Source: an uncultured virus (IMG/VR IMGVR_UViG_3300002835_000037)
Lineage: Duplodnaviria > Heunggongvirae > Uroviricota > Caudoviricetes
IMG/VR virus record: IMGVR_UViG_3300002835_000037
Reading direction: 5' to 3' (one strand)
Length of the DNA: 64,000 bases
Program-made: the position numbers and the translations under genes
Shown here: positions 224-53,580 of the stretch, piece by piece
Position numbering within the stretch: position 1 is the stretch's first letter
How the letters are laid out: each line of letters begins with the position of its first letter
The notes under the pieces: generated by a model
Database searches by the model: none
What the model saw: only the letters and a program-made list of their open reading frames with translations
Told to the model about the DNA's origin: nothing

Positions 224-3200
224 TTATTTTAATTTACCTGCATTTTCTAACCCTTGTAAGGATTGAGTTACGTCTCCTGTAGATCCTGTTATACCAACAG
301 ATTTAAGTAAACGACCTATGATTTTAGGTGATCCTTCTTGCTGCCAGAAGTACTCACCTTCTTTTCTACTATAGTAAGCCTTCTCATTAAAAGAAAGCAT
401 CCTAGCCACATCCTCTAGCATTTTTGCGTATAGACCCAAAGTGTTTCCAAAAGCTGATGTTGTTGTAGTAGCCATTTTCATATAGTCATCCATACCAAAA
501 TTAATTCCTGCTATTGTAGGAAGTGGTACAAATGCTGTTGCTTCTGCTTGTACACCAAGTAATAATACTAACATGTGATTTTGAATAAAACCCCAAGTTT
601 TAAAGTCATCCGTACCAAGAGCTCCTGATCTTTCTCGCATCTTTTTAAATCTTTCCTCATCATCAGGATCATACCCAAATATCATTGATGTTATCAAAGC
701 TGTAGTTATGACAAATAAACCTTCAGATAAAGTTTTTATCAAATCTCTCTTTTGATCTTCCGGCATATAAGCCCAATATTTACCTTTAGTTTTTATTAGT
801 TCTGAAAGACCTAAATAAGCATTTATATAAAAACCTATACTAGTTTTTCCAGTCATCCAGTTATATCTTTTTTCAAATTTAGGTTTCCAAAGACCTTCTT
901 CAACATTTACGCTGGCACCCAGTCTATTAGTAAACATAGGAATAAACCATTTTCTCATAAATGTGAACATTCTATATGGAAGATACAAGTTACCTTCTGA
1001 TTGAGAAAACTTATCATAAGATCCATATAATTTATGAGAAACACCTTGAAATTTATTTCTAAACTGTTTAAATTTCTCAGATTTTGCAATTATTATTTCT
1101 TGACCGTCTTCAAATTCTAATGCATTAACTACATTATTTCTTTTTTGAAGTTCTTCTACAGTTATAGAATAAATATCAGCAATTTCTTCTAAAGTCTGAC
1201 CTTTTATAAAAATATGATTTATTGTTTTATTACTCCAAGCCGGATCCACCCCTGGTTTGAGTTCTGCAATACCAGTTTCTGAATTTAATACCCAAGCATC
1301 TTTATAATTAATAGTAATTGTTTTACCATTAGATAGTTTTTGTTCTACTTTTTGAGCATTTAAAAAAGAACCAAAAAGCTGAAGTGCAGCTTCCATTTCT
1401 AAATTCTTTCTTATACTATACATCCATTCACCATTGAGCATGTCTTTAGCAAAATTTCTAGATACAGATCTACCAAAATCATCTACAAATTTAAATGCAG
1501 CATCAAACATCTCTATCATTTGTGAAGATAAAGCGGGAACACCTTTGGTATAAACACTACTAGAAGACCACTCAATCATTGTTTGAGCAGCCCATAATCG
1601 GGCTTGAGCCATATCTTTAAGTGTTATAGTATCTCCTCCGGCAGCTTCAATAATGTTCTGTACTATCTGACCATATCTATTTTTTAAATCCGAAGGAATA
1701 TTAATAGCCAAAGAAGCTCTAGCTGATAGTTTCTGTAACTGACCAACAAACTTATCTAAATACATAGAACTACCCTGGCCACTAAACTGTTTACCATAAT
1801 ACTCTCTTTCTATAAGTGACCTAACTTGGCCCGCTCTGTTATTAGTAGCTCCTGGTTTTGTTGTTTGTTTAAGTTTACCATTTATTCTATTAATAGTTTT
1901 ACTATAAGTATTAGGTGTTTTAGGAGCATTAGCTGGATCTTCTAATGTATCTAATACCGAAGTTACTAGCGGTAGTGTTTCTAATAGTTGACTTTGAGTT
2001 TCTAAAGAAAGCAAATACTTAAACATGCTTGATATAACATCAGGATCTGTGTTTTCAATATCAATATTATAAACACCAGAGACAGGGATATAAGAAATTT
2101 CTTCTGAATTAAGATCTGTATTAACTAGTCTATACTCTTCAAGATTATTATCTCTTTCATAGTTGTGTTCTAATTCAACTTCATCAACGGCTTTACCAAA
2201 TGCATCTGTTATAGATTGTTTTATACCTTTTTTAATTTGAGAGTATCTCTCACCAAATTTACCAGCTTGGATTCTAGACAGATTATCTCTTAGTACATAT
2301 CGAGGCATGTCAAGATAAAGTTTTGATTTATTTGACTTTCCTTCTTGAAATGCAAGAATTGATTTTTTCATTAATTCAAGTAATTGAAACCTAGTAGAGC
2401 TAGCTTGCTCTTTCAATCTCATGTACTCTTGATTAATATATTTGTTATTTTTTGCACTGTTTTTATCTCCTGGGTTGAACATCCTAGGTAAAAACTGTCC
2501 TTTGTTATCTATGTGCTCTCCTACTTTGAGTTCTATTTCTCCTGTTTGTGCATTATAGCCTGTTCTATATTTGTTTTTAACTCTGTAGATAGAGTGTCTG
2601 GCATTAGGGAGTCCCATAAAAGTTTCTTCTAAACCAGTCAATGGATTTAAAAGTACTGTTTTTTCATAATACTTTTCATTTTTGGGTACTGACACAGAAT
2701 TAGCCATAGATCTTTCATACCTAACTTCTAATTTTTTAGTCTTTCTGTTTTTTACTTTTCTTGATACATGATTATCTCTAAACCAATCTACAAGTTTACC
2801 ATCTGTTGCAAGCAAGTTTCTCATTTCAGAGCTATTGATAAAATCATCAATTTTCTCTTCGCTTACTGGAGCCACATTTAATCTTTGTAAGTGCTCATTT
2901 AATGAGTTTACATAATACTCAGTAGGTATTTTTTGAGTTAATGATGATAAGTCAGCATAAATGCTTTGCATAAGAGCAACTTCACCTATACTTAAACCAG
3001 TTTTAGATTGCTTTTCTAAAAGCTCACGGTATCTCAGCTTTTGTTCATCAGTTAATCTAGCAGGATCTTTTTTGTTTATAGCAATATATAATTCAAGTTC
3101 TTCAGCTTCATTCTGTGATAAACCAGTTTTAGTGTCAAATGCTGCTTTATAATCAATTATTTTCTGATGTAAATCCTTGATCATTTTCATTTTGTCAAGT

Positions 3201-6200
3201 CCTATTTCCGAAGGAATGGGTTGACCTTGCTCATCTTTGTATGCAAACATTAAGTTATAAATCTCATTGTATGCATTACCCATATCAAACTGTTCCCCTA
3301 TAACAGAATTTACTTTGCCCTGAAGCTTTTGTAATCTATCTATAAGATCCTTTCTTGAATCATAAAACTCTTGAGTATAAGCAGTTCTAATATTTTGTTT
3401 AATCCACTGTTCTTTTGCTTTTACTAATTCTTCTCCTGTAACACCTTCAGATTCTTGTAATGAAAGAAACTCATTAAATGCTGTTTGAAGAGAACCCGTT
3501 CTAGGTATAAACTCATAATAATCTCTAGTAGCTTCTTTATATTCAATAAGAACTTTAGCAATACTCAAATCATAAATACCATTAGCAGGATCATCTACTT
3601 TTGATGTACCATCAGCATATTTTAGAGAAGAAAGCATTTGATATTCTCTCCACAATTCTTGAAGAGTAGAATATTTCTGGAATCTTTCTAGTTCATCTGT
3701 AATTTCATTTACCTCATTAGTGTATTTATCAAGTGCCATTTTTCTAGCAAGCCACGCCAACTTACCAATCTCACCGTATTTTTCAAATACAGAATCTTTT
3801 TCATAAAATTCAGGAACATACTCATCATGCATGTAATCTTTTTTAAACTGCCTTAGTTCATCTGATGCAGCTTTTATTTTTTCCTGATCTTCTGAAGCAA
3901 ATGCCTCATCTAAATTATATTCTAACTTATCTAAATCATATCTCCATCCATTACCAAACTCATTTAGGAAAGTAAGAATCTCTCTTTCCATAGGTTTTTT
4001 AGTTTTTGGATCAATGTATAACACTTTGTCCTTAAACATAAGCATATCCACAAGTTGTCTTGTATTCAATGTGTTATATCCTATTTTTTCTAAAAGTGGT
4101 TGAAGCTCTTTTCTAAATTTATAAGACTTTTCTAGGGCTCTGTTTGCGGCTTCTGTTTTTTGATCATTAATAAAAATAGATAATCCACCTACTATAGGGT
4201 CATTACTAGAAGTGTAAGCTTCAAAGAATCTATTAAACCAACTAACATCTTGTAATTTACCTGACAAACCATCAGTAATCTTATCTTGATTTACAAGGAA
4301 TTTTTTATATTCATCAATAAACTTCTTGATGTATTTTGATTCAATACCTTTTTTATCTAGCTTGTCATATAGTTCTTGAGCAACTTCTGGATTATCAAGC
4401 TTTTGAGTTATAGCTAAATTATAAATCTCTTCTACTTCAGCAGCTGTTAATTTATCGGTTAGTACATTTTTAAGATTTTTACCAAGCTCTTCTTTTAAGA
4501 AATCATTCATGTAACCAGTTACCTCAACATAAAAGTTAATACTATTGGCTTTATAGATGTCTCTAATTTTTTTATCAGCTCTGAGTAAGTTATTCTTTAC
4601 TTCATTTATAAGGTCGACTAAATCATTTTGCTTTGAGATATCAAAACTATCTTCTTCCATTAAGAGCTCATCGAATGTAGTAAACATGTCATTCCATGAT
4701 CTTATTGAGCTTCTATATAAGAACAATAAGGCCATAGCATCTCTAGAATTTAATAAATCAGACTTTTGCATCATGTCCAAGTCATTAAATATGTTTTTAG
4801 AAATATTATTTACAATACCCACAGTATTTACAAAACTTCTAGCTCTATTAGTTAAATCTTCATTTCTAAGTTTTTCTGCTTCAATAGTATTTTCAATAAC
4901 CTCTTCTACTGTAAATCTTTGTTGATTAGAAACACTTTGATATCCTTGAAGAATTCTTCTAATACCAGGTAATAACTCAGCACTTTCTCCTTTTACCATT
5001 AAAGATTCTTTTAACATCTTTTGATACATTGGAGATCTGGTTCTGAAGTTTAATGCTTTATCATAAATAAGTTGATTAGTAGCATACATATCATTGATTG
5101 ACTCTTGGATTTTTTCTGCTTTAACATCTTTCGTCAATCTTTCAGCCATTTCTTTAATTTCTCGAGCATAGGCCACAGCATCAGCATCGGTAACATTTTC
5201 TGTTTGGTACTCAAAAGTTTTTTCCAAAAGCATGTCAGCAAGCTTATCTATGGTGGTGTTAACTTTGATATCAGAAACTTTTACCTTAAAGATTTTGTTG
5301 AGGATATCTCTTATAGCATTCATTAAACTATTAATGAATCCTGTAAATCCTTTTGTTTCTATCTGTTCTGTTACTTTGTTAGCTGCACTCCTTTGTAGAG
5401 CAAAAGCAAGTGCTTCCTCTTTAAAGAGGGGATCTTCCTCCGACAACTCAGGATAGTTATCTCTTACATGCTGAATTATAATTTCTCCCTCTGGAGTAGC
5501 TTCTAAGCTAGCATATAAGTTATTAAAAAGAGTCTCATTCTCTTTATAAATTGCTCTTAGTAAGGGGTGAGATAATTCATGAAGTACAGTATCAAAGTTT
5601 ACATTATCTCCTACTATATAAACTGTTCCGGCAAAGAAAAATGCCGGTTCATTATTATAAAGTTTTTTCCTTGATTCAAGTATCTCTTTGGCTTGTTCAT
5701 TAGTTACATACATGTACCGTACACCTAATGCTGCAGCAATCTTTTGACCTAATGCATCAGCAGCCTCCCGAGCCCGTGAATTTCTTACTGTTTTTTCATT
5801 AAAAGTAATAGATGGAGCATCCATAAAAGAAGGAAGATTTTGCCGTGAGCTTTCCTCTAACTTAGAAGGCTCTCTTAAAAACATAGGATCTATACTTTCA
5901 TCTTCAGGAAAAACTGAATCAGGCTCTTTTAAAATATCATAATCTTGTAATTCTTCTTTTATTTCAGCCCGCATTCTTTCATCATCTAAAGCTTCAAATA
6001 AAGGATTATTAGTCTGAGCATAGATTGTAGTTTTTATATCATCTCTCCAATATCTTGATGTTTCAGATAAACGTGTACTATGATCATAAGTACTAAAAGC
6101 AAGCTCTCCATCAAAATTAAGATTGTATTTGATCTCCATAAATCTGCTAAAGTTTCTATTAAACTTTTCAAATTCAATAGTGTCAAGAACTTGATTGAAT

Positions 6201-6262
6201 TCACCAAGAATTCCTTTTTCTTTTAGATGATTTAAAACTGTAGCCTTTGATTCACAAAACAT
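224..6262 (-). CDS. Giant virion cargo/ejection protein (2012 aa) with zincin-like HEXXH domain, LysM domain and C-terminal hydrophobic segments
   Basis: HELSH at 5567-5581 with downstream EEALA; LysM pattern KGQTLEEIADIYSITVEELQKRN..GQEIII at about 1088-1215; follows the RNAP gene as in crAss-like phages. Confidence 0.8.
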   Translation of the reverse strand: MFCESKATVLNHLKEKGILGEFNQVLDTIEFEKFNRNFSRFMEIKYNLNFDGELAFSTYDHSTRLSETSRYWRDDIKTTIYAQTNNPLFEALDDERMRAEIKEELQDYDILKEPDSVFPEDESIDPMFLREPSKLEESSRQNLPSFMDAPSITFNEKTVRNSRAREAADALGQKIAAALGVRYMYVTNEQAKEILESRKKLYNNEPAFFFAGTVYIVGDNVNFDTVLHELSHPLLRAIYKENETLFNNLYASLEATPEGEIIIQHVRDNYPELSEEDPLFKEEALAFALQRSAANKVTEQIETKGFTGFINSLMNAIRDILNKIFKVKVSDIKVNTTIDKLADMLLEKTFEYQTENVTDADAVAYAREIKEMAERLTKDVKAEKIQESINDMYATNQLIYDKALNFRTRSPMYQKMLKESLMVKGESAELLPGIRRILQGYQSVSNQQRFTVEEVIENTIEAEKLRNEDLTNRARSFVNTVGIVNNISKNIFNDLDMMQKSDLLNSRDAMALLFLYRSSIRSWNDMFTTFDELLMEEDSFDISKQNDLVDLINEVKNNLLRADKKIRDIYKANSINFYVEVTGYMNDFLKEELGKNLKNVLTDKLTAAEVEEIYNLAITQKLDNPEVAQELYDKLDKKGIESKYIKKFIDEYKKFLVNQDKITDGLSGKLQDVSWFNRFFEAYTSSNDPIVGGLSIFINDQKTEAANRALEKSYKFRKELQPLLEKIGYNTLNTRQLVDMLMFKDKVLYIDPKTKKPMEREILTFLNEFGNGWRYDLDKLEYNLDEAFASEDQEKIKAASDELRQFKKDYMHDEYVPEFYEKDSVFEKYGEIGKLAWLARKMALDKYTNEVNEITDELERFQKYSTLQELWREYQMLSSLKYADGTSKVDDPANGIYDLSIAKVLIEYKEATRDYYEFIPRTGSLQTAFNEFLSLQESEGVTGEELVKAKEQWIKQNIRTAYTQEFYDSRKDLIDRLQKLQGKVNSVIGEQFDMGNAYNEIYNLMFAYKDEQGQPIPSEIGLDKMKMIKDLHQKIIDYKAAFDTKTGLSQNEAEELELYIAINKKDPARLTDEQKLRYRELLEKQSKTGLSIGEVALMQSIYADLSSLTQKIPTEYYVNSLNEHLQRLNVAPVSEEKIDDFINSSEMRNLLATDGKLVDWFRDNHVSRKVKNRKTKKLEVRYERSMANSVSVPKNEKYYEKTVLLNPLTGLEETFMGLPNARHSIYRVKNKYRTGYNAQTGEIELKVGEHIDNKGQFLPRMFNPGDKNSAKNNKYINQEYMRLKEQASSTRFQLLELMKKSILAFQEGKSNKSKLYLDMPRYVLRDNLSRIQAGKFGERYSQIKKGIKQSITDAFGKAVDEVELEHNYERDNNLEEYRLVNTDLNSEEISYIPVSGVYNIDIENTDPDVISSMFKYLLSLETQSQLLETLPLVTSVLDTLEDPANAPKTPNTYSKTINRINGKLKQTTKPGATNNRAGQVRSLIEREYYGKQFSGQGSSMYLDKFVGQLQKLSARASLAINIPSDLKNRYGQIVQNIIEAAGGDTITLKDMAQARLWAAQTMIEWSSSSVYTKGVPALSSQMIEMFDAAFKFVDDFGRSVSRNFAKDMLNGEWMYSIRKNLEMEAALQLFGSFLNAQKVEQKLSNGKTITINYKDAWVLNSETGIAELKPGVDPAWSNKTINHIFIKGQTLEEIADIYSITVEELQKRNNVVNALEFEDGQEIIIAKSEKFKQFRNKFQGVSHKLYGSYDKFSQSEGNLYLPYRMFTFMRKWFIPMFTNRLGASVNVEEGLWKPKFEKRYNWMTGKTSIGFYINAYLGLSELIKTKGKYWAYMPEDQKRDLIKTLSEGLFVITTALITSMIFGYDPDDEERFKKMRERSGALGTDDFKTWGFIQNHMLVLLLGVQAEATAFVPLPTIAGINFGMDDYMKMATTTTSAFGNTLGLYAKMLEDVARMLSFNEKAYYSRKEGEYFWQQEGSPKIIGRLLKSVGITGSTGDVTQSLQGLENAGKLK

Positions 6263-6265
6263 CTC

Positions 6266-9200
6266 TTAACATTTTAATGGGTTATTTTCTCCTTCAAAGT
6301 TAGCTAATATTTCTGCATCAGTAACAGGTTGATATTTAGCTACCTCTTTACTTATTTCTTGAGCAAACTCGGAGCCTGGATTTAAGTATTGAAATTCTTC
6401 AAAAAGTCTCTTACTTAAATATACAAATAATTCTTGAGGCATCAAAGCAGGATCTCCATATCCGTTGATAGAGAATGCTACTTTACCACCATTGTCAACT
6501 ACTTGACGGATTTCATTTATAGCCTGCTCAATCTCAGCTTTTCTTTTTGGATAAAGCTTAGAGTCTAGAGTTGAGAATGCATCAGCAATACTATCTTGAC
6601 CAGTTATTATTCCTATAGAAGAACTATTAGCAATCTTTCTAATCTGAAGATTACCTTTTACTTTTTTCTTTTGGAATTCCGCATCTGTCATTTTATCCAA
6701 AGCTTGTTTTTGACCAAGACTAAACTGATATACAAATGTAAGATCTTGATTATTACCTACAATATACTGATAAGCTTTTTCAGTTCCAGACAGATCATTA
6801 TAAACAAACACATTAGGGTTAATGGTAGGAATCACATTCTTTCTTTCTAGCAAGTTATCTGAATCAGAAACATCTTCTGTTTGTGTATCAATCTGTGAAG
6901 CTTGTTCCTTGACAAATTGTTTAAACATAGCAATGTCTTTCTTAGTACCTAACTCATGAATTTGCTTGCTTGAATTTACTACAATCTGCAACTCTTTACC
7001 ACCTAATGGGTCTAGTGTATTAGTAGAATAAATTCCGTCATGCCCCTTATAGCTCTTTTCTGTTTCACTATACGGTCTGTTGTCCAAATACTTTGGGTTC
7101 TTTAAATTTATAATTGCAGGAATAACTTGTTCACCAACATTTAAATTCTCCAGAGTTCCTTGCTCAAAGGCATAAGCTTGTCTATTTTTCACATCCCAAG
7201 CAGCATATCTTGAAGCTGCTAGTAAGTCACTGAAATAAGAGCGATCTCTTAATTTTTCAATTTTGGTGCCCTCACCAGTTCCATGATAAACAATTTCTCT
7301 TACTAACCTATCAGGAAATATAGTATCTAAGTATTGAGAGTACTGTTCAGGTGTACCAGTAGTAGCCAATTCTGGAGTAGACTTAAATAATTCTTCTACA
7401 CCTTCTTTAGGTTTTATTGCTTTTACCTCAAGTTTAGCTTCAATTTTTTCAACGTCCAATCCAGTAAGATAGTTTTTGAATCTGCTTCTTGTTCTATTTG
7501 TTTGGCTATTTACTTGCTCAAACTTATTTTTGAAATCAATAAGCATTTTTAATTTAGCTGGTGATGTCAAGAACTTGGCAGTTTCATCATTCATTATATC
7601 AATAAACTTATCAAAGTCAGTTAAGTTTAAGAAGTTGTATTTACTCTTATTGGTACCGGCCTGCATCATTGCAACATATGTCATCTTAGCAAAGAAGTCA
7701 CTGATTCTATCATTTTCTGCTTTGTCTTGTACTTTTTGAACAGTTCTGTCAGCAAGATCCTGCAGATTTCTTGAATAAAGATTGGACTTAAATGTACTCA
7801 TATCTTTATCATCTACATACAGATTAAACATAGTTTTATCTGTAGTGCTATCAGGTACTATTCTAGCAAGTACAGGATAGTCTTTAACAAAATCATTTCT
7901 ATACTCACTTCTTAGTCTATCAAATCTGATAGCATAAGCATTGTCTCTATCATTGAATAAATGATAAGGATTAAGAGTATTATCTAAAGCTCTCATGGCT
8001 AAGATTTTTTCATAAGCATATCTTCTGTTAACCGCTTCTTTATCTGAAATACTTGTTTTATTTGCTAATTCAAGTTCTTTCTCATACTCTTTAGTTTTAG
8101 AAACTTCACCATAAGGCATTAAATGTCTTAAGTACTCTCTTTCAATTACAAAACGTATATATTCTGCTTTGTTAGATGAGGTATTACTTCCAAAATGACC
8201 TGGTTCTAGTGCATAAAGACCTCTTTGTTCATAGCTGTTTCTAGCCTCACTTCCTTTCAAATAAGCTTTATCAAAAAATTCTTTTTCAAGTTGAACTCTG
8301 TCTATAACCATTGTAGGACCTTTTGAGGTTTCAACAACCTGAGCTCCAAATTTAAGACCTGCTGCTAAAGTTAATGACATAGAGTCAGTCAAAGCAAACG
8401 AGCTGTATTCATTACCTAAGTTATACTTTCTTAAAGCATTTTGAAATATATAACTTAGTATGTCATTTCTAAAAGTTACTGGAAATTTATCTCTATAGTT
8501 TCTCCCAAAAGCTGCTTTTAATATGGCTGAATTTTTAATATCCCCCATATAAGATTGAATATAATCTTGTATATCCTCATCATATCTGAATTTGAATAAA
8601 GGTTTGGAAAGACCTCTGATCAACTTAGTGTTAAAGAAAGAACTAATTACAGAGTCGTTTAATAAACCCAGTCTTAAATCTTGATCTATCTTTGACTCTT
8701 CAGCTAATGCATCCATGTTAGCTTCGGCTTGAATGGCTTGTCCAACATCGGTCATAGTAGATGTGTCAGGATTAGATGCCATTTTCAATGCGGTAAGACC
8801 TTGTATCTGTTGTTCAATTGTAAGGTAATGCAAGAACATAGCTCTAGATAACTCACTAGCACCTAATTCAGGATTTGTTTTAGAATCTTCAATAAGTTTT
8901 AACATTTCTTCTTCAGTAAAATGTCTTTCATTATTTTTTCTTTTCTTAGTATCAAAATAATTTTCCATTACTTTCATACCTTCCTCGTATCTAGTTTGAT
9001 TATCAGGTATAAATTTTTCAAAGTTTTTAGCAATTACATCACTAGCGGCTTTAAAAGAAGCTCCTTGAAAACCAGGTTCTTTTCTTAAAGGTTCAGCAAA
9101 AGTACTTTGACCAAGTCTTTTTTCCTTTACATATTGTCTTACTAAAGGTTGAGATACAAAATATACTGCCTCTTTAAAAGGAACTCCGGTTTTTAGCAAG

Positions 9201-12200: not shown

Positions 12201-15200
12201 TTTACAATAGAATCTGTATCTTTTCTAATTACATCTCTGTTATAGGATGTAAATTTAGCAAAGTAATCTTTCATCTGGGGAGACTTAAATCTAAAGATTC
12301 TACCCCCTTCTGCAGCAATATACCCTAATAGTATATTAAACGCTTGAGATTCTCCTAAGTTATTATCAGCTGTTGTATTAGCAGGACTAAAAGCCATCAC
12401 ATCTACATAAAGATTATCAGCTTTTTTGCTAGAATATGTATTTACTTTCTTAGCTCTTAAGTTCATGGCTGTTTGCTTAGATGCATGTCTCATGAACTCT
12501 TGAACTCCAGATTGCAACATTGTATGTAATTCTTGTAAGAACTTACTAGTAACATCTGTATTAGCTGTTGAAGTTCCTATAGAATCATTTGTTTCTTTAT
12601 TGATGATCTGAGTGCCCCCAATGTTTTCAAGAACAATACTGGCACCCGGAAATTTTTCACCATATGTATTTGACATTGGATTTAGATCAAATACTGAATT
12701 TAAGATCACAGAGAAAGCAGAAGCCGGGTTATTATCTTCACCTAACCATCTCATATGTTGGAATCTACCATTTGGATCTGCTTCATCCATTGTTAACTGT
12801 TGCCAATTCTCAGCTCTATTAATAGAAGTAACAACCCTGGTTATAGTATTATCTAAGAACTGTTCCCAAACTTTATTTTTCTCAGGAGTTAATACACTGT
12901 AATTTGAATAACCATCAGAAAACCTATTCTGTAATTCTGCTAACACTCTTACTTTGCTTCTAACATCTCTTGATTTTCCACCAGCTGCTTTTGTTATTGC
13001 TTCTGGAAGACCATTCATCAAATAGTAAAGTGGTTGTTTCTTAACCAAATCTGCAGCTGCATTTAATGCTAGGTCATCAGCTTTACCAGCTAAATGGACC
13101 AATCTAATATTTTCATATATGAAATCAATATTATATCTACTAGCAAAAGGAAACTTCTTATTATTTACAACTCCCCTAATTTCAGCACTAGTCATATCCA
13201 TTTGAATACCTAAAGCCGCTAGAAAGTCTCCAGCTTTTGAAGGTATTAGCTGTTTGTTTTGACTAAAGTCTTTCATCAATAGTTCCGTGTTAAGATAGTT
13301 ATTTCCAAATTCATCTCTTAACAAATACTTATTTACTGTAGGATCTCCAACATTAAAGTTGGTAGTCCAGTCAGTGATGATTCTATAGATATCAAAATTA
13401 GCTGCTGCCAATCTAGATTCATATTTAGATTTTTCAGGTATCCACTTACCATCAATTTTTTTAGCTTTCTCTAAGACAGTTTTATTAATATTCAACTGAA
13501 CAAATGGAATAACCGGTTTCTTAAGATCTTGCCAGAAATTTGTTTCTGACTGAAACTCTGTTGTGTTATTGTAAGAACCAGGAGCCGCAAGATAAGGATT
13601 AGGCAGCATCTGCATTACTTGAATAAATTCAGGATAGTTTTCTATGTTCTCTCTAAGCCTATCATACATTTCTTCATAATCTAAAGAGCCCTGCATTGTT
13701 CTTGCAAGTCTGTTCCACATGATATCAACCGGTTCAAGAATAGGTAGACCGAAATCATCTTCCTCTATAGAGTAAGACTTCACTCCAGCCTCATCTTCTG
13801 TCTGGATATAGTTACCCTGATCATCTCTCTTTAATTTATAAATACCAGAAAGCATCATCATAGTGTCATCTGTTGCAAGTTGTTTTGCAGATATAGCATT
13901 TCCTTCTGTGCTTTTAAAAAGAGCTACAGAAGCATCTTCTGTATCATCAATATATGCATCCTTTAAGATATTAAATCTAGATCTTTGCATATGGAAAGCT
14001 ACAACACCGACATCTGTCTGCTTAGACAAAGAAGCATCAATGTCACCGAAATTTTCAAAAGCTTTTAATAGCAACTGGAGTTTAGCATTTTCCTTTTGCT
14101 CAGTAATGTAATCAGGATTTTCATTATCAATCTCAGCATTTTTTAGAGCAATATTTCTAGCAACCTCAATTTGGTTATCTAGCAAAACACTTAGCTGTTT
14201 TTTTAAGTTATTATAAAGCTTTTGTCTATTGTTAATGTCAGATAGTAATTTTACTGCTCCACTTGTAGTACTAAACTTGCTATTGTACAAATAAAAAGTT
14301 CGGGCCATTAATGAATCCATTAAATCAACAATCTTACTAGATTCAACATCAGTAATTTCAGAAAAAGCTTTTGCTGCTACTTCAACTGGCTGAATTGTTT
14401 TCTTTGCACTATTCAATCTTTGGAAACCAGCCATTAAATTATTCTCAGCATTTTGAGTACTAATTTCAAATTTACCTGTGTAAAGTTTATCAAAATATTC
14501 TTTTACTTTCGGAATGTCTTGAAGTCTTGTTACATCTCTCTTAGTAGTATTACCAAAGAAGAAATCAATTAGCTTTTTGATTTTATCAAAAATAGTCTGG
14601 ATAAATCCTTTTTGTCTTTTTCCATTAGCAACATAGTCAATAAATTCTTCAGCAAGCTCTTCTTCAATATCAATGTACTCCATGTTTTTCCACTTGTCAT
14701 AATTACGAGCAGTATCATAGAGATCTTTCTTTTCACTCTTGGTAAGTACTAACTGTGAAAAAGCATGCCATGCTTCATGATAAAGAGTAACAGGTAATGC
14801 ATCTCCATATAGTTCTACTCTTGCTGCATAGCCATTCTTTCTTAACTTAACTGCAGCATCAGCAAGCATAGAACCAGCTGACATAAAAGTACCATAAGCA
14901 TCAGAATTGAATACTGTAGCCAGTCTTTCTAATTCCACAATTCCTTTTAAAGGAGATGAATCCCACCATTTCTGAACTTCGGTCCAACCTTGTTTACCAT
15001 AAAGTTGATTCATTACTCCAGCCTTTCTCTTATCTCTATTAAGAGGAACATCTGGTATAATATCAGATCCATCAAGAAGATCATCAATAGCTAATCTATT
15101 AATTTTTGCATCTTCTACTTTCTGTTCTTCAACAGACTTATTCTTTATTTCTACAGTTCTTCCTTTTACTTCAGCTGTTTTTGGAACAGTAGTAGTTTTA

Positions 15201-17788: not shown

Positions 17789-17790
17789 TT

Positions 17791-20700
17791 CTATTTAGGT
17801 TTACAGTTATTAATATTATCTTCTTTGCTTTTGTTTTTCAAAGCTGCCATTCTATCTTTTTTAGACATTCCCGCATTTTCTTTTGCTTTATTAATTAGCT
17901 CAGGATTTTCAGAAAATTCTTTAATGCTGCTTTTTGAAATATTAGAGTTTTCTTTTTCTTCAGGAGTTGGTTCCATAATTTCTATTTCTTCTTGGTTTAA
18001 AGCTTCTTCAGTAGTCTTAATAAAGTCATTTTCAACTTGTTTTTGAGTAAGTGTTTTTCTTCTAGGTTTACCGTTAATAATGTCTTCAACTTGATTAACA
18101 ATTACTTTACCATCTTTGATTTCTTTTACTACAACTACTTGATTAGCTGGACCATCAAAGATAGGTTTTTTACTAATAAGATATTCTCCTTCAGATATAT
18201 TTTCTTCAGAGGTATTAGTATTCAAAGCCATCTTTCTAATGTTGTATACATTTTCAACTAGATCTGAAAAAACTACATCAGATTCTGCCATTATCATAAG
18301 AATAGCATCTGTATATGCTTTCTCAAGTTCATCAAGAGTTTTAGAATTTCGTATATCTGCTAAGATCTTTTTAAACTCTTTAGAGGTAATACTTTCCGGT
18401 TCAGGAAATACATCTTTAACTCCTTTTTTAAGGGCATTGATTTCACTTTCTATTTCTTCATCTACTGTAGGTTCCTTAGCAACCTGTTCTAACTTAGCTA
18501 ATTCTTTTTCAACTTGTTCTAACTTGTTTTTTAAGCTAGTATACTCCGGAGAAAAGGTAACCATGTCTCCCATAGCAATAATACCACCGTCAGGTAAAGC
18601 AGCAAGTTTTTTATTTAAATCAGTTCTTCTTCTTTTTAGTTTTGTAATCTCAGCTTTTTTCTGATCTTCAGTGAGCTCTGGGGTAACCGATTTTTTACCA
18701 ACACTTTCTGATTTTAAATTATCCGGAAGCACTGGAGCTTTCATTACTACACCGTATTCGGCAAGAGTAGCATCTGGAATTGGTTCTAAAGGCACCGTAG
18801 TAGCTTTTTCTAACTCTTTGATTTTAGATTCCAATTCTTTTATTTTAGCTTCATCTGGCTTACTTGCTTTTTTCAAAGACAAAATTTTATTTCTAAGTTC
18901 ACGAATAGCCTCATTGTTTACATTTTTAGCTGCTGATTCAGCAGATAAAATATTCCCATCCATGTCTGTAGTAATAGCTATAGGAAGTATTGAAATACTT
19001 TTTGCTAATTCTCCAGTCATGTTAAACAACAAAGCTCTATAAATTGACTGTTGTAATCTATAAGTAAGCTTTTTATTAAATGAACCTTCCTTATTAAAAT
19101 TATTCCAGTTTCCTTGTTTACCGGTTTTTATATCTATAATTTTTAAATTACCAGTTTCTGTGTCAAAAGCAACTAAGTCCATGGCACCAACTATACCTGA
19201 CTCTAATAGAGATTGATCATAAATAATAACATCTTCTGAAAGAATAATATATTTACCATCAATTACAGCATCTTGAAGTTCTGTTATCATACCAAACTCA
19301 CCAAATAAATTATCATAAGCTTGTTGAGACATTCCTGCAGGTTTTTCAGGTCTAACAAAACCTCCTTCCTGACTTATTCTAAAAGAAGCTCTAACCATAG
19401 TATCAATAGTGTTACCTGCAATAGTTGATTCATCATAAGCAACATCTTTTACAACAGCAATTAATACTTCTTCAGTAAAGTTATTAGTAAGAGCATTTTT
19501 AATCTTATCTAGTTTTCTTTGACTTTTTAATTGGGCAAGCTTCCCACCTTTTACCGTAGTTTCTAAACCGGCCATAAATAAATTAAGTCTTTCTGTATCA
19601 GACTTAATTGCAGTATCTGTCTTAAGTTCTCTAAAGAGATTTAATAACTGACCACCTCTTTGTTTACCATCTTTATCAGTGTAAGGTTCCTGAACAGCCT
19701 CATATAAGAAAGGTGGTTTGTTAGTCATTTTGTTTTCTATCTCTTCAGTAAGTTTAGTAACCCTCATAGGTTTACCATCTACTCCAGGGAACTCGTAACC
19801 AATAGTATTACCTTCAGCATCAAGTATTCTAGATATATTATCTTGTTTATTAATGACCATCTCTTCAAAAATTCTAAACACTCTTTCAGTGTTTGTTTTT
19901 GGAGTATAGTTTGCTCTTAAGTAATTTAAATATTTTTGTAACTCATTGATATCATTTTTTATAGCAGCTTTTTCTGTATTGTTTAAAGGTCTACCATTAA
20001 TGTTATTTCTATCTAGAATAGCTTCAAGTTCTTTTCTCATAGTCCGAAGCTGCGTAAGACCGTATTCTGTAATAGGTTTTTTAAAAGTTAAGTACTTAAT
20101 GGTGGGCATAGCAGACTCTTCATCAAATGCTCTTTCATTATAAGTTCTGATTACATCTTTCTGAGTTTCTAACCAGTTGCCTCTTATTATCTCATACTGG
20201 TTTGGATTTATTCTTTGAAAATCTTTAGGCTTTTTCAAAGTCTCAACTAAATAAATATCAAATGCAGCCTGAAGCTCAGCTTGCAAATCTTCAGGTAATT
20301 CATTCCATGTTGAACTAGTACTTACATCTTTCTTAGCTTCTTTTTTAGCAGGCGCTGCTGCAGGTTTCCCAGAATCTTCTTCATCAAAAGTTCTTTGAGC
20401 TTTTAATTTATCAATTAAAGTTTCATATCTTTTTATAGTTATATCTACTTGTTTTTGATAACTTTTCCAAGCATCTGTGGTTTCAATAGGTGGTGTTGTA
20501 TCAGCTTCAGCAACAGGTTCTTCTGCAGTAAGCTCTGCAATTTTATCTTCTAGTACCTGCAATAAACCAAACTTCATTTCTGTAGCTCGTAGTCTCTCCT
20601 CCTGCTCTATTGAGGGGTCTAAAGATTTAAGAAACTTTTTAGCTTCTTTTTTATTATTATTTATTGCGGCATTTTTAATCTCTTCCCAATTCTCTGGTAT

Positions 20701-23700
20701 TAAACCTTGTTCAGAAAAAGCATTATAAAGTTCAAAAACTTCATCTGCATTTTTAGCATCATCTATTAATGTAAGATTAGCTTTAAAGTCTTTTATTTCT
20801 GCATCTATTTCTTCTTGAGTTCTTCCTTCAGCGGCAGCAGGTTGCATTTTTTCCCACTCTTCTCTAGTTCTTCCTGTTGTAGCTACTAGATCTTCTTCTA
20901 ACTGTTGTCTAAGTTTTTCTAATTGAGTATCTCTTCTCTCAACAAGTTGAGCAATTCTTAATTCTAGTTCAGCTTTTTTAGATTCATCTTTAGCCATATC
21001 TCCAAGCTCTTTTAAAGCTTTGTAGTCTGTTAATACTTGAAAATATCTGTCATAAGCAATACTTCCTTCAGGAATTACTAAACCTTTTCTTTCATCATAG
21101 AATTCTTTAGGTGGCTTGTTTTCATCTCTGTAGAGAATGAAATCATTAGCCTCCATAAAGATTCCTTGTTGCGCAAGAAAATTTAGCAATCCGTTATCTT
21201 CAATATTAGATAGTTCTTGTGTAACAATGTCTCTATAATAGTCTCCTCTCTTTAACCAAAGATTAGTCATCCATTTATAGTTTCTTTCAAACACATCAAT
21301 AAATCCTTTTGGATCATTCATGACATTTATTAAATCAACCATTTGACGGGACTCATCATTGAGTTTATAAAAGTCCATTACTAATTCAAAAGCATCATCT
21401 ACAGTATTAGTAAATAAGTAATCATCTGGTTTTCCCGATATAGATCTAAGAAGGTTATTATACTCTTTTTCAAGATTTAACAGTACTTCACTTTCTATAT
21501 CTGCATTTTTAGGTCCAAACTTATCATCAAGAAATTCTTCAATTTCTGTATCTGTTACAGTTTCACCTTCAGCTTTTTGAGATTGTAAAATTGACTTAGC
21601 TCTATTATAGTATCTATCTCTATGATAATAATCTGTAAATTCATCATAAGCATTTAGATATTTTTGAAGAGCTTCTGCTTCTTTTAATTTTTCCTTAGCC
21701 ATTTTTTTAGACTCAGGATCTCCAACTGCAATTAAATTATTAGCTTCATTTTTCAACAAGCCAATTTCATTTTTCATTTCTTCAGGTCGAAGAATAATGT
21801 CAGATTGTCTTTTAGACATTCCTTGTAAAGCTCTTTCATCATAATGTTTATTCATTATGCCTGTCATTCTTTCTCTAACATCATCAAAAACTTCCCCATA
21901 AAAAACTGCTGATTTCTTACCAAGTTCCCACATTTCATGCATCATATAAGCATCTTCATAATCTTCTTCTTCTTTTGTATATCTAGAAAGATTAATAGGG
22001 TTAGGGTAAAGCTTATCATAGAAATCTAATTTCTGTTTTATAGTTTTAGCTTTATTAACTACTTCACCAATTCTTGCTTTATATTTAGAAATTTCATTTT
22101 CTGGAATTTTAGGAAAAGCTTCTTTAAATTCAGGATTGGTCATATCTACATAGCTACCAATGGCATCTAAATAAAGATCTAAAACACCATATTCATTAAG
22201 CATAGTAATATGATTAACAAGAGATTCTGTTTCAGCATCCATTACTTTTTTCTTGTTACCACCCTCTTGAACTTTTGCTAATATTTCTTGAGCTCCTCCG
22301 TTAAACAATCGGCTATTAACAAACTCTTCAACCCCAAAAGCATTCATTTTCTCTACTAAATCTGTAGCAATTTTACTTTTTTCTTGAACATATTCTTGAT
22401 AGGTCCCTTTGTCAAAAATTTTATTAGCATTTTCATACAAGAAAGTCATTGATTTGTTAAGACCTCCAGTAAGAGAACCCATGGCAAAACCTGAAGCAAA
22501 AGTTGCAAACCCTTCTTTAGTAGTTGTCATTTCTTTCAACTTTCTACCATAATAACTTAAAGGAGTACTATCTTTTCCAAATGCCGCTTTAGTAACTAAA
22601 TTCTTTCTTACTGTTGCACTATGAAAAGTATCTTTATAATATTTTTCATTAGCTCCAGAAATTGTTTCTTGTAAAGTTTCTTGAATACCTTCTGAAATAT
22701 TTGCTTTTAAATAACCAACAGTACCCCAAACAGATTTATAAAAAGGATCTGTTTTCCAACCATTCCACCAAGTTGCAAAACCTCTTTCAGCAAATTTCCA
22801 TTCATTCTTAGCAACATCAAACACAACATTACCAAGTTCACCAAATCTACCTCCCCCTACAGTTTTCCAGTCTATTATTCTCTGACGTAAAAAACCCTGC
22901 GTACCAATTCTAGGATTAAGAATATTATCAAAACTAATTTTGTTAGTAGCATATATTAAACCAACATTCCAAAAAGATGTTTCATAAGAACCTCTTTTTG
23001 CTTGATTTATAATACCCTGCATTTCATCATCGGAAGGAGCTCTCCCTGTTTCATTATAGAATTTATTATACAAGTCCTCTATTAAGGTATTATAAACCAT
23101 TCCTGACTCAAGCCGAGCTTCTGCTATAGCCATGTTTATATTTCTAAAGTCTCTGTATGCAGCACCTGCTGTATTCATAAATGTTCTTCCTGATTGCAGG
23201 TACCCATTAAAATCATCTGTAGAATTTAAAATAGCATATGCATTATCAGTTAAATTACTAAGAGGGTTTAATACTCTACCAACAGGTGATGTTACAGCTT
23301 TTTGAAATCTACCTATACGATTAGATTTATCCCAAGCTTCTCTTACTTTATTAATATCTTTAAATTCTTCAAGAGCTTGACTATAAGCTTTAATACCATC
23401 AATTCCTTTTCCAGCTTGATATTCTTTCCATAGTAAATTTGCTGATTTTTGAGTAATAGTTTTAGCACCGGTAAAAGCACTTATCCCAGCACCAATCCAG
23501 TTTTCAGCTAAAGCTGTAGCCATTATACCAAATGTATAACCAGCATTTATAATTAGATTATTAGCAAACGAACCTAAGTTATCTTTACTTGAATAATTTT
23601 TTGCATTTATAGTTGCGTACTCTCTGGCCAATTGACCATCTTCTCCTAAAAAATCTCCCTGATTAAAAATTCTAGCTGTACTAGACCAAGTACTTTTAAA

Positions 23701-24159
23701 ACCATTCCAAAACATGGGTAAAACAGCTTGTGATATTGATCTATACATATCACCTGCAAAATTTGTATTTTCATTTTTCCAAGATTCGTTGTTAAACAAT
23801 GGATGGAAATCAAGCTTACCTGGTACTGTAAATTGTTTGTATCTTTCATAATAAGCACCAGAAGGACCAGAGTTATATGAATATACTTTAGCCCATTCAT
23901 TATTATCTTCATTTGCATTAGTTAATGACTTACTATAATCTCTTAATGCAGCAACTTTAGCATCAAAATCTTGCTGTGTATAAGAAGATGAAGGCGGTTT
24001 TTTAGAAGGCATGGGACCTGGAGAAACACCAGTAATTCTTTGCTTAACCTGCATAGGATCAGGAAAAGGTTTTACTGTACCTAAGCTTGAAGGTATAGGA
24101 ACTTGATTAGGATTAGAGTATGTATCAGCTACACTCTTTTCAAAACTATTTTCTTTCAT
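17791..24159 (-). CDS. Giant virion cargo/ejection protein (about 2122 aa) with a PD-(D/E)xK nuclease-like domain
   Basis: GAMDLVAFD..KIIDIKTG..YRLQQSIY motif; helical/coiled-coil body; second Met (24159) preferred over 24174 because the overlap with the upstream gene is shorter. Confidence 0.78.
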   Translation of the reverse strand: MKENSFEKSVADTYSNPNQVPIPSSLGTVKPFPDPMQVKQRITGVSPGPMPSKKPPSSSYTQQDFDAKVAALRDYSKSLTNANEDNNEWAKVYSYNSGPSGAYYERYKQFTVPGKLDFHPLFNNESWKNENTNFAGDMYRSISQAVLPMFWNGFKSTWSSTARIFNQGDFLGEDGQLAREYATINAKNYSSKDNLGSFANNLIINAGYTFGIMATALAENWIGAGISAFTGAKTITQKSANLLWKEYQAGKGIDGIKAYSQALEEFKDINKVREAWDKSNRIGRFQKAVTSPVGRVLNPLSNLTDNAYAILNSTDDFNGYLQSGRTFMNTAGAAYRDFRNINMAIAEARLESGMVYNTLIEDLYNKFYNETGRAPSDDEMQGIINQAKRGSYETSFWNVGLIYATNKISFDNILNPRIGTQGFLRQRIIDWKTVGGGRFGELGNVVFDVAKNEWKFAERGFATWWNGWKTDPFYKSVWGTVGYLKANISEGIQETLQETISGANEKYYKDTFHSATVRKNLVTKAAFGKDSTPLSYYGRKLKEMTTTKEGFATFASGFAMGSLTGGLNKSMTFLYENANKIFDKGTYQEYVQEKSKIATDLVEKMNAFGVEEFVNSRLFNGGAQEILAKVQEGGNKKKVMDAETESLVNHITMLNEYGVLDLYLDAIGSYVDMTNPEFKEAFPKIPENEISKYKARIGEVVNKAKTIKQKLDFYDKLYPNPINLSRYTKEEEDYEDAYMMHEMWELGKKSAVFYGEVFDDVRERMTGIMNKHYDERALQGMSKRQSDIILRPEEMKNEIGLLKNEANNLIAVGDPESKKMAKEKLKEAEALQKYLNAYDEFTDYYHRDRYYNRAKSILQSQKAEGETVTDTEIEEFLDDKFGPKNADIESEVLLNLEKEYNNLLRSISGKPDDYLFTNTVDDAFELVMDFYKLNDESRQMVDLINVMNDPKGFIDVFERNYKWMTNLWLKRGDYYRDIVTQELSNIEDNGLLNFLAQQGIFMEANDFILYRDENKPPKEFYDERKGLVIPEGSIAYDRYFQVLTDYKALKELGDMAKDESKKAELELRIAQLVERRDTQLEKLRQQLEEDLVATTGRTREEWEKMQPAAAEGRTQEEIDAEIKDFKANLTLIDDAKNADEVFELYNAFSEQGLIPENWEEIKNAAINNNKKEAKKFLKSLDPSIEQEERLRATEMKFGLLQVLEDKIAELTAEEPVAEADTTPPIETTDAWKSYQKQVDITIKRYETLIDKLKAQRTFDEEDSGKPAAAPAKKEAKKDVSTSSTWNELPEDLQAELQAAFDIYLVETLKKPKDFQRINPNQYEIIRGNWLETQKDVIRTYNERAFDEESAMPTIKYLTFKKPITEYGLTQLRTMRKELEAILDRNNINGRPLNNTEKAAIKNDINELQKYLNYLRANYTPKTNTERVFRIFEEMVINKQDNISRILDAEGNTIGYEFPGVDGKPMRVTKLTEEIENKMTNKPPFLYEAVQEPYTDKDGKQRGGQLLNLFRELKTDTAIKSDTERLNLFMAGLETTVKGGKLAQLKSQRKLDKIKNALTNNFTEEVLIAVVKDVAYDESTIAGNTIDTMVRASFRISQEGGFVRPEKPAGMSQQAYDNLFGEFGMITELQDAVIDGKYIILSEDVIIYDQSLLESGIVGAMDLVAFDTETGNLKIIDIKTGKQGNWNNFNKEGSFNKKLTYRLQQSIYRALLFNMTGELAKSISILPIAITTDMDGNILSAESAAKNVNNEAIRELRNKILSLKKASKPDEAKIKELESKIKELEKATTVPLEPIPDATLAEYGVVMKAPVLPDNLKSESVGKKSVTPELTEDQKKAEITKLKRRRTDLNKKLAALPDGGIIAMGDMVTFSPEYTSLKNKLEQVEKELAKLEQVAKEPTVDEEIESEINALKKGVKDVFPEPESITSKEFKKILADIRNSKTLDELEKAYTDAILMIMAESDVVFSDLVENVYNIRKMALNTNTSEENISEGEYLISKKPIFDGPANQVVVVKEIKDGKVIVNQVEDIINGKPRRKTLTQKQVENDFIKTTEEALNQEEIEIMEPTPEEKENSNISKSSIKEFSENPELINKAKENAGMSKKDRMAALKNKSKEDNINNCKPK

Positions 24160-27100: not shown

Positions 27101-27535
27101 AATAGCTCTTAAACCTCCATCCCAATATTGAGAATAAATTTTTTCATCGGTAGATACTCTTTTACCTTCTCCTAAAGCTCTTTCAAACCCTACATTTTTA
27201 GTAAAGACCATGTCTCTCATAAGACTCTTATCTTCATAAAAAGGTCTGAATAACTGTGTTGCCTGCTGAACATTCTGCTCTAAAGAGAGATCTAAACCTG
27301 TAATCCTTTTTAAATCAAAGTCAATTCTCTTTAATGTATTATCTCTTCTGTTTACACTTTCATCATGAGTAAGTGGGGCATTTAAGATTTGTCCATAAAT
27401 ATTATTTAACCTTTGCCAGTTCTGATCATATTGAGTTTGTTTTAACTGCAATATATTTGCAGCAAAATTAAAATCAGGCTGATAAGGCTGATAATCCGGA
27501 ATAAAAGTTGAAACCCCTTGTGGATATGTTGCCAT
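24146..27535 (-). CDS. Virion cargo/ejection protein (1129 aa) with a Gly/Ala-rich putative membrane-inserting segment
   Basis: Long ORF; MAAATAGAGYSMAV..GVAGFGAGAVAGGAGYLG at about 25230-25410; lies in the cargo block. Confidence 0.7.
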   Translation of the reverse strand: MATYPQGVSTFIPDYQPYQPDFNFAANILQLKQTQYDQNWQRLNNIYGQILNAPLTHDESVNRRDNTLKRIDFDLKRITGLDLSLEQNVQQATQLFRPFYEDKSLMRDMVFTKNVGFERALGEGKRVSTDEKIYSQYWDGGLRAIDYKVQEFKETPYDQLTGFGDVKYTPYVNVEKEALDIASKLKLNIKRTTPQGDWIITEKNGEPAIPILQSVFYSVLGKDPRVKEVYATRAYLERKDYVMSNKDNPEFGGNAELTEKKYLNNTLSVLQNQTELIRGSLLSEKKVNDKMISKLEQSLIDGTDNSSTNETLQRYRDANDKLAEMIKQNENDMSLITDNVNRTLSTTGGAKLSTDDINQLRSRVDAVTASTLLQVDLDAAARSFAYINYEQTVDPNPFAVMKKKFLYDSSLIRQRTDAQKEVAYFKYLLDFDKKEEETKINNGTHYKDPKTGEVKPIPELNDVQSDPSAYSSTESADPRAMLDRTNDLYTQTANNTKTYILKTIDELNKEGVLSDRELYEILIGPGSKKSGLNFNMAPMMAWLQANEKKGAGSYEEDPAAYGALRQAGVYVTKLELEAGSPTVNLQNQITLENLADLSLIDLSPTQIAGISKRLNTVIEKKKDDPNIKNSSTIGGLVSSAHELEDYASVKKAYRAAKIEWATEVKDKLKADGFNYAEFFFDKDLNFVTSPEAFLENVAKWNPDHVIKDDAITFGGFMNTVMAAATAGAGYSMAVASPSGPGMAPAGVAGFGAGAVAGGAGYLGKGLFSYIKNYFSDGMSSYTLLTPSYGGWGEARTIEDEYNAMIDMYGQFVENSLLSSGVPASNHAVSDKELGFLDRFRNVTAGTVGRTLDTYGLGYREKGTGYYAGSGASIKIVPGLMTPTYNHFLEIKKTIRNITLDPSGDNAYVALSGPNTTKEDFGKDGVEGSIATNRFIFNTIIRDVFNKAGEKGMPAFNVSVTPFAGYDASKASITFKLPEDYLKQFAPTKSITKIEGLDEKAYQSILANGITFITDASKLQNLAMFRNSYKTPEQIRIEQAGDKGVTYTDPRYKDYSITYKTDMFNPGAYTVIKKYPVYNPTTNSMVIIDDVQNLKNMGTNIRQDRTQFFNEFAPQLEYSQNNERRQYERK

Positions 27536-27593
27536 AGTATTTTATATATTGTAAAACTATTAAAATTTATTAAGTTTACTAAACTTACAAAGT

Positions 27594-48612: not shown

Positions 48613-48613
48613 A

Positions 48614-53568: not shown

Positions 53569-53580
53569 TAATATACAAAT
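53569..53580 (-). promoter_or_regulatory. Candidate phage promoter motif ATTTGTATATTA
   Basis: Variant of the GTATATTA motif, 16 nt upstream of the ATG at 53552. Confidence 0.45.

Follow-up and report, generated by a model that had tools for sequence, protein, structure and literature searches.

Cysteines facing each other across gene junctions in three giant cargo proteins of an uncultured crassvirus, and a possible head-to-tail disulfide chain

The DNA analysed here is a stretch of 64,000 nt (the window) from the uncultured virus record IMGVR_UViG_3300002835_000037 in IMG/VR, a member of the Caudoviricetes. Its minus strand encodes three giant neighbouring proteins, here termed A, B and C, which comprise 7979 residues with a combined mass of 910 kDa and contain only four Cys, all of them close to the ends of the chains that face each other at the A-B and B-C junctions (Table 1). 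The outer ends of the trio, namely the N-terminus of A and the C-terminus of C, are Cys-free. A first-pass annotation of the window had listed these coordinates and Cys residues and had described one Cys on each side of both junctions and none at the outer ends; re-reading the open reading frames (ORFs) and junctions gave an exact match, and the residue positions bear out the description. The three proteins are encoded by three ORFs, separated by a TAG and a TAA stop, and not by the fused RNA polymerase (RNAP) polyprotein known from some relatives. Upstream and on the same strand lies a crassvirus structural module, in which Pfam recognised Crass_capsid (E 2.6e-31, 62428-63981), CrAss_Ring_1 (2.2e-11), CrAss_Ring_2 (1.6e-23) and crAss_MUZ (5.4e-19, 43186-48693).

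Protein B had been called an RNAP, and this assignment is supported. It carries an invariant DFDID, DFDxD being the motif of the RNAP catalytic site (10.1101/2020.03.07.982082), and it is homologous to gp66 of phage phi14:2, annotated as catalytic RNA polymerase subunit (tblastn E 4e-10, g066). In a small database, residues 1963-2283 and 2565-2915 matched gp66 by BLASTP with E-values of 2e-15 and 1e-12, the E-values of profile matches at Z=1e6 being 2.4e-11 and 1e-7, and B is homologous to gp50 of crAss001 as well. The first 85 residues of C are 33% identical to residues 1-84 of phi14:2 gp65, which is also matched by later parts of the protein, and A revealed a weak match of residues 1586-1739 to residues 1714-1871 of crAss001 gp47 (E 4e-8 in a small database). 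The proteins gp67/gp66/gp65 of phi14:2 and gp47/gp50/gp49 of crAss001 are homologous to the trio, and they display the same pattern of terminal Cys. Proteins of the RNAP module were found in virions of phi14:2 by MS/MS (tandem mass spectrometry), according to the record notes, and in those of crAss001 by virion mass spectrometry (PMC10172136). Searches of A, B and C against Pfam and PHROGs yielded no family except phrog_10774 (function not assigned) in B, phmmer against PDB sequences yielded no match (threshold for B, E <= 0.01), and blastn of the window DNA against a phage collection yielded none either.

Table 1. Features of the cargo genes in the window; coordinates are window positions.
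Feature	Position	Strand	Description
Protein A	17791..24174	-	2127 aa, 241.8 kDa; first of the three proteins; Cys only at residue 2124
A Cys2124 codon (TGT)	17803..17805	-	fourth from the C-terminus, ..NINNCKPK*
A-B junction	17786..17793	-	TAG of A, 2-nt spacer, ATG of B
Protein B	6266..17788	-	3840 aa, 436.2 kDa; virion RNA polymerase homologue; Cys only at residues 3 and 3840
B Cys3 codon (TGT)	17780..17782	-	MACQ; invariant column in alignment A1
B Cys3840 codon (TGT)	6269..6271	-	last residue, ..NPLKC*; invariant in alignment A1
B-C junction	6260..6268	-	TAA, one codon (GAG), ATG of C; B and C in the same frame
Protein C	224..6262	-	2012 aa, 232.1 kDa; single Cys at residue 3; homologous to the RNAP-associated zincin protein gp65 of phi14:2
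C Cys3 codon (TGT)	6254..6256	-	MFCE; sole invariant column of alignment A4
DFDID catalytic motif of two-barrel RNAP	9941..9955	-	B residues 2612-2616; invariant in alignment A1 (26 sequences)
HExxH (HEAWH), zincin-like module of B	14765..14779	-	residues 1004-1008; H1004, E1005 and H1008 invariant in alignment A1
HExxH (HEFSH) of C	5567..5581	-	residues 228-232; invariant in alignment A2; within predicted helix 223-241
Folded alpha/beta domain (predicted), C-terminal end of B	6359..6841	-	about residues 3650-3810; followed by a tail ending in Cys3840
N-terminal module of C (predicted)	5945..6262	-	residues 1-106; small folded domain, first helix from residue 4, directly after Cys3
Cys-free protein upstream of A	24146..27535	-	1129 aa; probably cargo, outside the Cys-marked chain
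Cys-free protein directly after the muzzle gene	33272..43186	-	3304 aa; peptidoglycan-binding/endolysin-like stretch at residues 2416-2466

The scarcity of Cys in the trio is pronounced. From the position-specific base composition, 23, 44 and 25 Cys would be expected in A, B and C, about 92 in total, and each of the two off-frames contains between 31 and 233 TGY triplets. By comparison, 167 Cys are present in the 6340 residues (2.63%) of the remaining 16 minus-strand ORFs in the structural module. For four uniformly placed Cys, the probability of finding one at each facing terminus is about 1.5e-12, calculated for the window alone, and the pattern exceeds chance. Depletion of Cys extends beyond the trio, as the two upstream giants of 1129 and 3304 aa are devoid of it, so that the five giants of the window together have 4 Cys in 12,412 residues, a composition in keeping with Cys-suppressed ejection proteins. 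In the viral_contigs collection, the ORF preceding A is Cys-free at almost every locus.

Three database searches provided 120 homologues of B, 81 of A and 120 of C, ranging from 24 to 100% identity, in which the terminal Cys proved to be conserved and internal ones extremely rare (10 in 886,609 residues of all 321 sequences). Among the B homologues, 116 of 120 have a Cys within the first ten residues and all 120 within the last ten, with two internal Cys in 425,117 residues; of the four without an N-terminal Cys, three are fragments truncated at the N-terminus and the fourth is P0080. All 81 homologues of A possess a Cys within the last ten residues and no internal one, an additional Cys8 in one of them being traced to a miscalled start. 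In the case of C, the Cys lies within the first ten residues of 114 of 120 homologues and never within the last ten, and eight internal Cys were counted in 283,519 residues. The six C homologues without the N-terminal Cys are four truncated sequences, P0268 and P0302.

The same regularity is seen at the level of gene junctions. A single-protein scan of viral_contigs had returned only L001, a spurious low-complexity locus, and was replaced by a profile scan, which identified 73 loci with B; flanks of at most 10 kb were included, and junctions were counted wherever two plus-strand ORFs of 150 aa or more followed each other. Of 199 junctions, 131 are flanked by a Cys on both sides, 65 have none on either side and three have one on a single side. 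Each of these three has its explanation: C of L046 is frameshifted, its true N-terminal piece starting with MAC, the start in L010 is miscalled, and the one-sided junction of L065 is formed with an ORF that lies 600 nt beyond the downstream end of C and is not related. The terminal Cys are encoded by both TGT and TGC, at positions +2 to +9 and -1 to -10 of the chains. Counting Cys by position across homologues, as proposed in the first-pass annotation, thus found them conserved and paired across the junctions.

A second comparison involved 17 named crAss-like genomes, picked for taxonomic spread from tblastn match lists. There, all 21 unfused junctions display a facing Cys pair, given that the pair in crAss002 is obtained only with the start of gp33 moved to Met33 (MSC) and that the downstream ORF at the cr10_1 junction (MKIIC) is unannotated. 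A, B and C are separate in phi14:2, crAss001, DAC15 and cr111_1. The Cys are found at -1 in gp67, +3 and -2 in gp66 and +3 in gp65 of phi14:2, and at -3 in gp47, +5 and -9 in gp50 and +5 in gp49 of crAss001. In other crAss-like phages, the modules follow in the order A-B-C but are joined by peptide bonds, Fpv1 gp33 and p-crAssphage gp44 being examples. A and B are fused in Fpv1, cr10_1, cr50_1, cr1_1, cr52_1, cr7_1 and cr108_1, and B and C in p-crAssphage, crAss002, Rudgehvirus, cr8_1 and ctbg_1; from cr124_1, only the B-C junction was readable. Such polyproteins have been described as likely cleaved by proteolysis (10.1101/2020.03.07.982082). In the window, by contrast, A, B and C are encoded separately, with a Cys pair at each of the two boundaries instead.

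Where two genes are fused, the facing pair is gone and that of the other junction is kept. Six genomes have a fused junction that is clearly devoid of Cys, namely Fpv1, cr10_1, cr1_1, cr50_1 and cr108_1 (A+B) and Rudgehvirus (B+C), the position of this junction in cr1_1, cr50_1 and Rudgehvirus being estimated from tblastn coordinates. Fpv1 gp33 (A+B, 4401 aa) has its sole Cys at -2, and the following gp34 has Cys3. In cr10_1 gp32, residues 1-2442 are Cys-free, while BLAST mapping places the fused junction near residue 2000. A side observation concerns cr124_1 (L006), cr52_1 (L091) and cr7_1 (L093), whose cargo ORFs contain 26-148 in-frame stops of table 11 within annotated coding sequences. 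This fits a stop-codon reassignment in these Suoliviridae, and the terminal Cys pairs are still present.

The converse event was encountered in locus L013, in which C is truly split. Its first ~375 aa form a separate ORF of 396 aa, which ends with ..DLIVDCG and is 61% identical to L025, whose unsplit C has only Cys3. The exact split site of C (20710-29246) is occupied by a GIY-YIG homing endonuclease gene that stands on its own (21952-22545), and the remainder of C restarts with MAC and has a new N-terminal AAA_33 kinase domain. Since each end at the split has a Cys and the unsplit protein of L025 has none there, the new gene boundary has acquired a pair of its own. An additional ORF of 242 aa separates B from C in L077, and its only two Cys are residue 3 and the final residue. 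The pairs therefore disappear at fusions and are present at splits, a behaviour that the first-pass annotation had proposed to test. Domain content seems to follow a different course: the zincin module, located at the C-terminal end of protein A in crAss001 (gp47), lies about 1000 residues inside B in the window, which indicates that the Cys pair tracks the gene boundary and not the domain, though the homology of this module between gp47 and B is weak and partly transitive. The proteins of the window are also considerably longer than those of phi14:2 and crAss001, B having 3840 aa compared to 2180-2412 aa.

Three further loci were considered as splits and rejected. L064, with B in two ORFs, and L038, with A in two ORFs, looked like splits without Cys but turned out to be 1-nt frameshifts within conserved sequence. 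In cr108_1 (L005), gp54, ending with ..AGSD, and gp53, starting with ..DIDK, lie about 290 nt apart (21824-22115); this gap interrupts DFDID itself and resembles an intron or a similar insert.

Could the terminal Cys be a by-product of nucleotide signals at the junctions, such as those for translational coupling or reinitiation, or of a general Cys depletion combined with chance? The genes lie close together, 111 of the 131 paired junctions having a gap between -1 and 4 nt, B and C share a frame, and Cys depletion is a general and published trait. In crAss001 and DAC15, however, gene A is found on the opposite strand, away from B, and has nevertheless kept its C-terminal Cys; the homing endonuclease gene lies inside a paired junction; and both codon and position of the Cys vary. 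The relocated gene, the use of TGT and TGC and the varying positions contradict a nucleotide artefact. Moreover, N4, DEV and T7 gp15/gp16 are depleted of Cys without having terminal pairs, and the window alone speaks against chance, as calculated above. We consider this explanation hardly credible.

Taken together, the behaviour of the junctions supports the view that the four Cys act as two facing pairs. Based on this comparison of sequences, we propose, with a probability of roughly 0.6, that A, B and C are joined head-to-tail by disulfides in the virion, a disulfide replacing the peptide bond of the fused relatives. According to this proposal, the three proteins would be cargo that is packed in the head of a crAss-like phage and ejected into the host, the C-terminal Cys of A being bonded to Cys3 of B and the last residue of B to Cys3 of C. 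The product would be one covalent chain of 7979 residues and 910 kDa, which would be expected to impose a 1:1:1 co-packaging and to pass through the tail as one thread, a passage that N4 achieves with a single chain of 3500 aa. Reduction in the cytoplasm would then separate the subunits; this reductive release and an exit in gene order, both suggested in the first-pass annotation, are pure inference. The A-B-C link had been put forward in the first-pass annotation, and it has since gained weight from the facing-pair behaviour on fusion, splitting and insertion of extra links, as well as from a precedent in the Anabaena cyanophage A-4L, although it stays a proposal.

This precedent comes from a cryo-electron microscopy study of A4 (PNAS 2025, PMC12002296), in which a disulfide connects Cys1715 of gp27 with Cys5 of gp26 and the C-terminal helix of gp27 is docked in a cleft of gp26. 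By our counts, Cys1715 is the only Cys of A-4L gp27 (1717 aa), and Cys5 the only one of gp26 (1114 aa). Both are large all-alpha ejection proteins of the pre-ejectosome, encoded by adjacent genes, each with a single facing terminal Cys and otherwise Cys-free, and the junctions A|B and B|C show the same signature, that is, a single Cys at the C-terminal end of the upstream protein and a single one at the N-terminal end of the downstream protein on a Cys-free background. Differences are nevertheless evident. In A4, one link joins two proteins, neither of them an RNA polymerase, whereas the trio would have two links and include the RNA polymerase; the proteins of A4 encircle the portal as an ordered pentameric ring, whereas the crassvirus cargo is unresolved; and neither the Cys-free background nor a rule for fusions and splits is described in the A4 paper (PMC12002296). 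When gp26, gp27 and gp28 of A-4L were compared by phmmer with 36 crass-like, N4 and A-4L proteins, only self matches were obtained at E <= 10. Since there is no such sequence homology between A4 and crassviruses, the likeness is one of mechanism and not of family.

As to novelty, the first-pass annotation knew of no description of such a chain. For Crassvirales, this stands: a text search of the literature, comprising main texts without supplements, found no description of terminal Cys in crassviruses. The word "cysteine" occurs 0 times in the crAss001 paper (PMC10172136), as do "cysteine", "disulfide" and "Cys" in the preprint on gp66 (10.1101/2020.03.07.982082). Inter-subunit disulfides of the crAss001 virion have been reported for tail and portal-vertex proteins (PMC10172136). 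In general terms, the claim has to be restricted, as a single head-to-tail disulfide between ejection proteins is known from A4 (PMC12002296).

The depletion of Cys as such is not new either. N4 gp50, gp51 and gp52 contain 0 Cys in 3500, 644 and 150 residues, and T7 gp15 and gp16 have 0 Cys, the small ejected gp14 and gp6.7 having their sole Cys at residue 2. Suppression of Cys in ejection proteins of Schitoviridae has been published, with the passage through an oxidising periplasm as the suggested rationale (DEV gp71/72/73; Nat Commun 2024, PMC11445570). Like the trio, Schitoviridae such as N4 and DEV combine a giant virion RNA polymerase that has to unfold for the tail with near-zero Cys in every ejected protein, but their RNAP is T7-like and that of crassviruses is of the two-barrel type. 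They lack terminal Cys altogether because polymerase and flanking domains form one polypeptide. Hence, what is new are the conserved terminal pairs and not the depletion. It also follows that avoidance of mispairing, to which the first-pass annotation had attributed the purging of other Cys, is one possible reason only: N4, T7 gp15/gp16 and DEV suppress Cys without any terminal pair, and the rationale given for Schitoviridae is the avoidance of periplasmic disulfides and not the control of pairing.

Even if the terminal Cys form disulfides, their partners may be others than those proposed, e.g. in homodimers (A-A, C-C or B-B), in a closed ring of B accompanied by an A-C bond, or in bonds to the portal or other cargo. 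Sequence cannot assign partners, several copies of the cargo are present per virion (PMC10172136), and a lone terminal Cys in Intestiviridae stands outside the A-B-C scheme. On the other hand, polarity is strict, the Cys of A being at the C-terminal end in 81 of 81 homologues and that of C at the N-terminal end, never the reverse. End members have one Cys, whereas internal members, two extra links included, have two; with each fusion, just the two Cys that face each other are lost and the other junction is unaffected; the split in L013 produced one Cys per new end; and the solved A-4L case is heterotypic and head-to-tail. Alternative partners are therefore unlikely in our view.

Another possibility is that the Cys serve without any disulfide, as ligands of a bridging metal, as sites of modification (e.g. 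acylation for membrane contact after ejection) or as redox-sensing thiols by which the proteins are switched on in the cytoplasm. Conserved single thiols at chain ends are compatible with this, and T7 gp14 and gp6.7, with their sole Cys at residue 2, hint at other uses. Yet the residues flanking the Cys vary, with no conserved adjacent His or second Cys that could complete a metal site, and a modification or a sensor would not predict that facing Cys are gained and lost jointly with gene boundaries. We rate a role of this kind as quite unlikely.

The preferred disulfide chain is compatible with predicted structures at the B-C junction, obtained with AlphaFold2 on alignments of the window and the viral_contigs loci. 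In the model of the last 280 residues of B (alignment A3), a folded domain is predicted with a pLDDT (predicted local distance difference test) of 95-98, followed by a tail whose values fall to 81, 75 and 66 over the final 30 residues, the last at the Cys. In the model of C (alignment A4), residues 1-100 reach a pLDDT of 82-97, and a disordered linker (residues 111-160) leads to the zincin-like part. Foldseek revealed no match of either model in the PDB at E <= 0.001, the weak rows showing generic phosphatase-like and zincin-like folds. The Cys of this junction would thus be located at chain ends beside folded modules, which fits a docked tether like that of A4 but is no proof of one.

Several points weigh against the proposed chain. 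A bond has not been observed directly in any crassvirus, and gp47, gp49 and gp50 were not resolved in the crAss001 reconstruction (PMC10172136). As virions are assembled in a cytoplasm that is reducing, and as many of the hosts are anaerobic, a step of oxidation must be assumed, and the assignment of partners among the Cys cannot be fixed from sequence alone. The homologues are related, so the conservation counts are not independent events, and the full-length-sized C homologues P0268 and P0302 and the B homologue P0080 have no N-terminal Cys as annotated. In p-crAssphage, crAss002, cr8_1, ctbg_1, cr52_1 and cr7_1, which are richer in Cys, a Cys-free fused junction could not be assigned; p-crAssphage has Cys2220 near the estimated fused junction, and several internal Cys occur in gut relatives, up to 15 in cr8_1 gp93. 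Finally, the first cargo protein of Intestiviridae has a lone Cys at its C-terminal end with no evident facing partner (position 856 of 857 in p-crAssphage gp47, 550 of 557 in crAss002 gp30 and 747 of 757 in Rudgehvirus g49), and cr8_1 gp90 begins with MTKKC, neither of which suits a simple three-link chain.

Beyond the Cys, invariant HExxH motifs in both B and C point to two zincin-like modules in the cargo set of this phage, that of B matching the C-terminal part of crAss001 gp47. Near-identical relatives differ in their modules. P0001 is 100% identical to B yet has 4232 aa, P0002 (96% identical to B, 4009 aa) contains a Zeta-toxin/AAA_33 kinase domain, and P0203 is 99% identical to C yet has 2511 aa; after residue 143, about 400 profile positions are missing from the C of the window. 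None of the inserted modules contains Cys. The 3304-aa protein encoded next to the muzzle gene is probably an ejected wall-degrading cargo, far bigger than crAss001 gp45. Its short peptidoglycan-binding stretch matched PG_binding_1 with an E-value of 5e-4 (weaker than the Pfam cut-off) and phrog_2649 with 1.8e-5. The same operon as the Cys-free giants includes an ORF of 615 aa (53580-55427, minus strand) with 50 Cys (8.1%) and no Pfam match, and its neighbours at 52161-53552 (4.3% Cys) and 55631-56173 (6.1% Cys) are Cys-rich as well. Within the structural module, an ORF with an Endonuclease VII domain (59320-59892, minus strand, E 5.9e-15) has 14 Cys.

No other phages of the human gut are as abundant as crassviruses, which are also common in the sea. 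How they bring megadaltons of protein into the cell, among them a polymerase that greatly exceeds the tail channel in width, is regarded as an open question in the structure papers on crAss001 (PMC10172136) and N4. More generally, a "disulfide for peptide bond" rule may apply to crAss-like phages, to which we would give even odds: a Cys pair would evolve wherever the injected polyprotein is cut, be it by drift, domain shuffling or insertion of a homing endonuclease gene, a covalent thread of ~0.9 MDa including the RNA polymerase would exit, and reduction in the cytoplasm would free the subunits, resulting in a redox-timed delivery and activation. A covalent tether, if true, would explain the stoichiometry and ordered threading of the three RNAP-module proteins as well as the interchangeability of fused and split gene architectures, an idea that is directly testable on the cultured phages phi14:2, crAss001 and DAC15. 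If the rule is true, terminal-only Cys on a Cys-free background would predict injected proteins and their connectivity, and cargo in thousands of uncultured genomes could be annotated from sequence by a simple rule.

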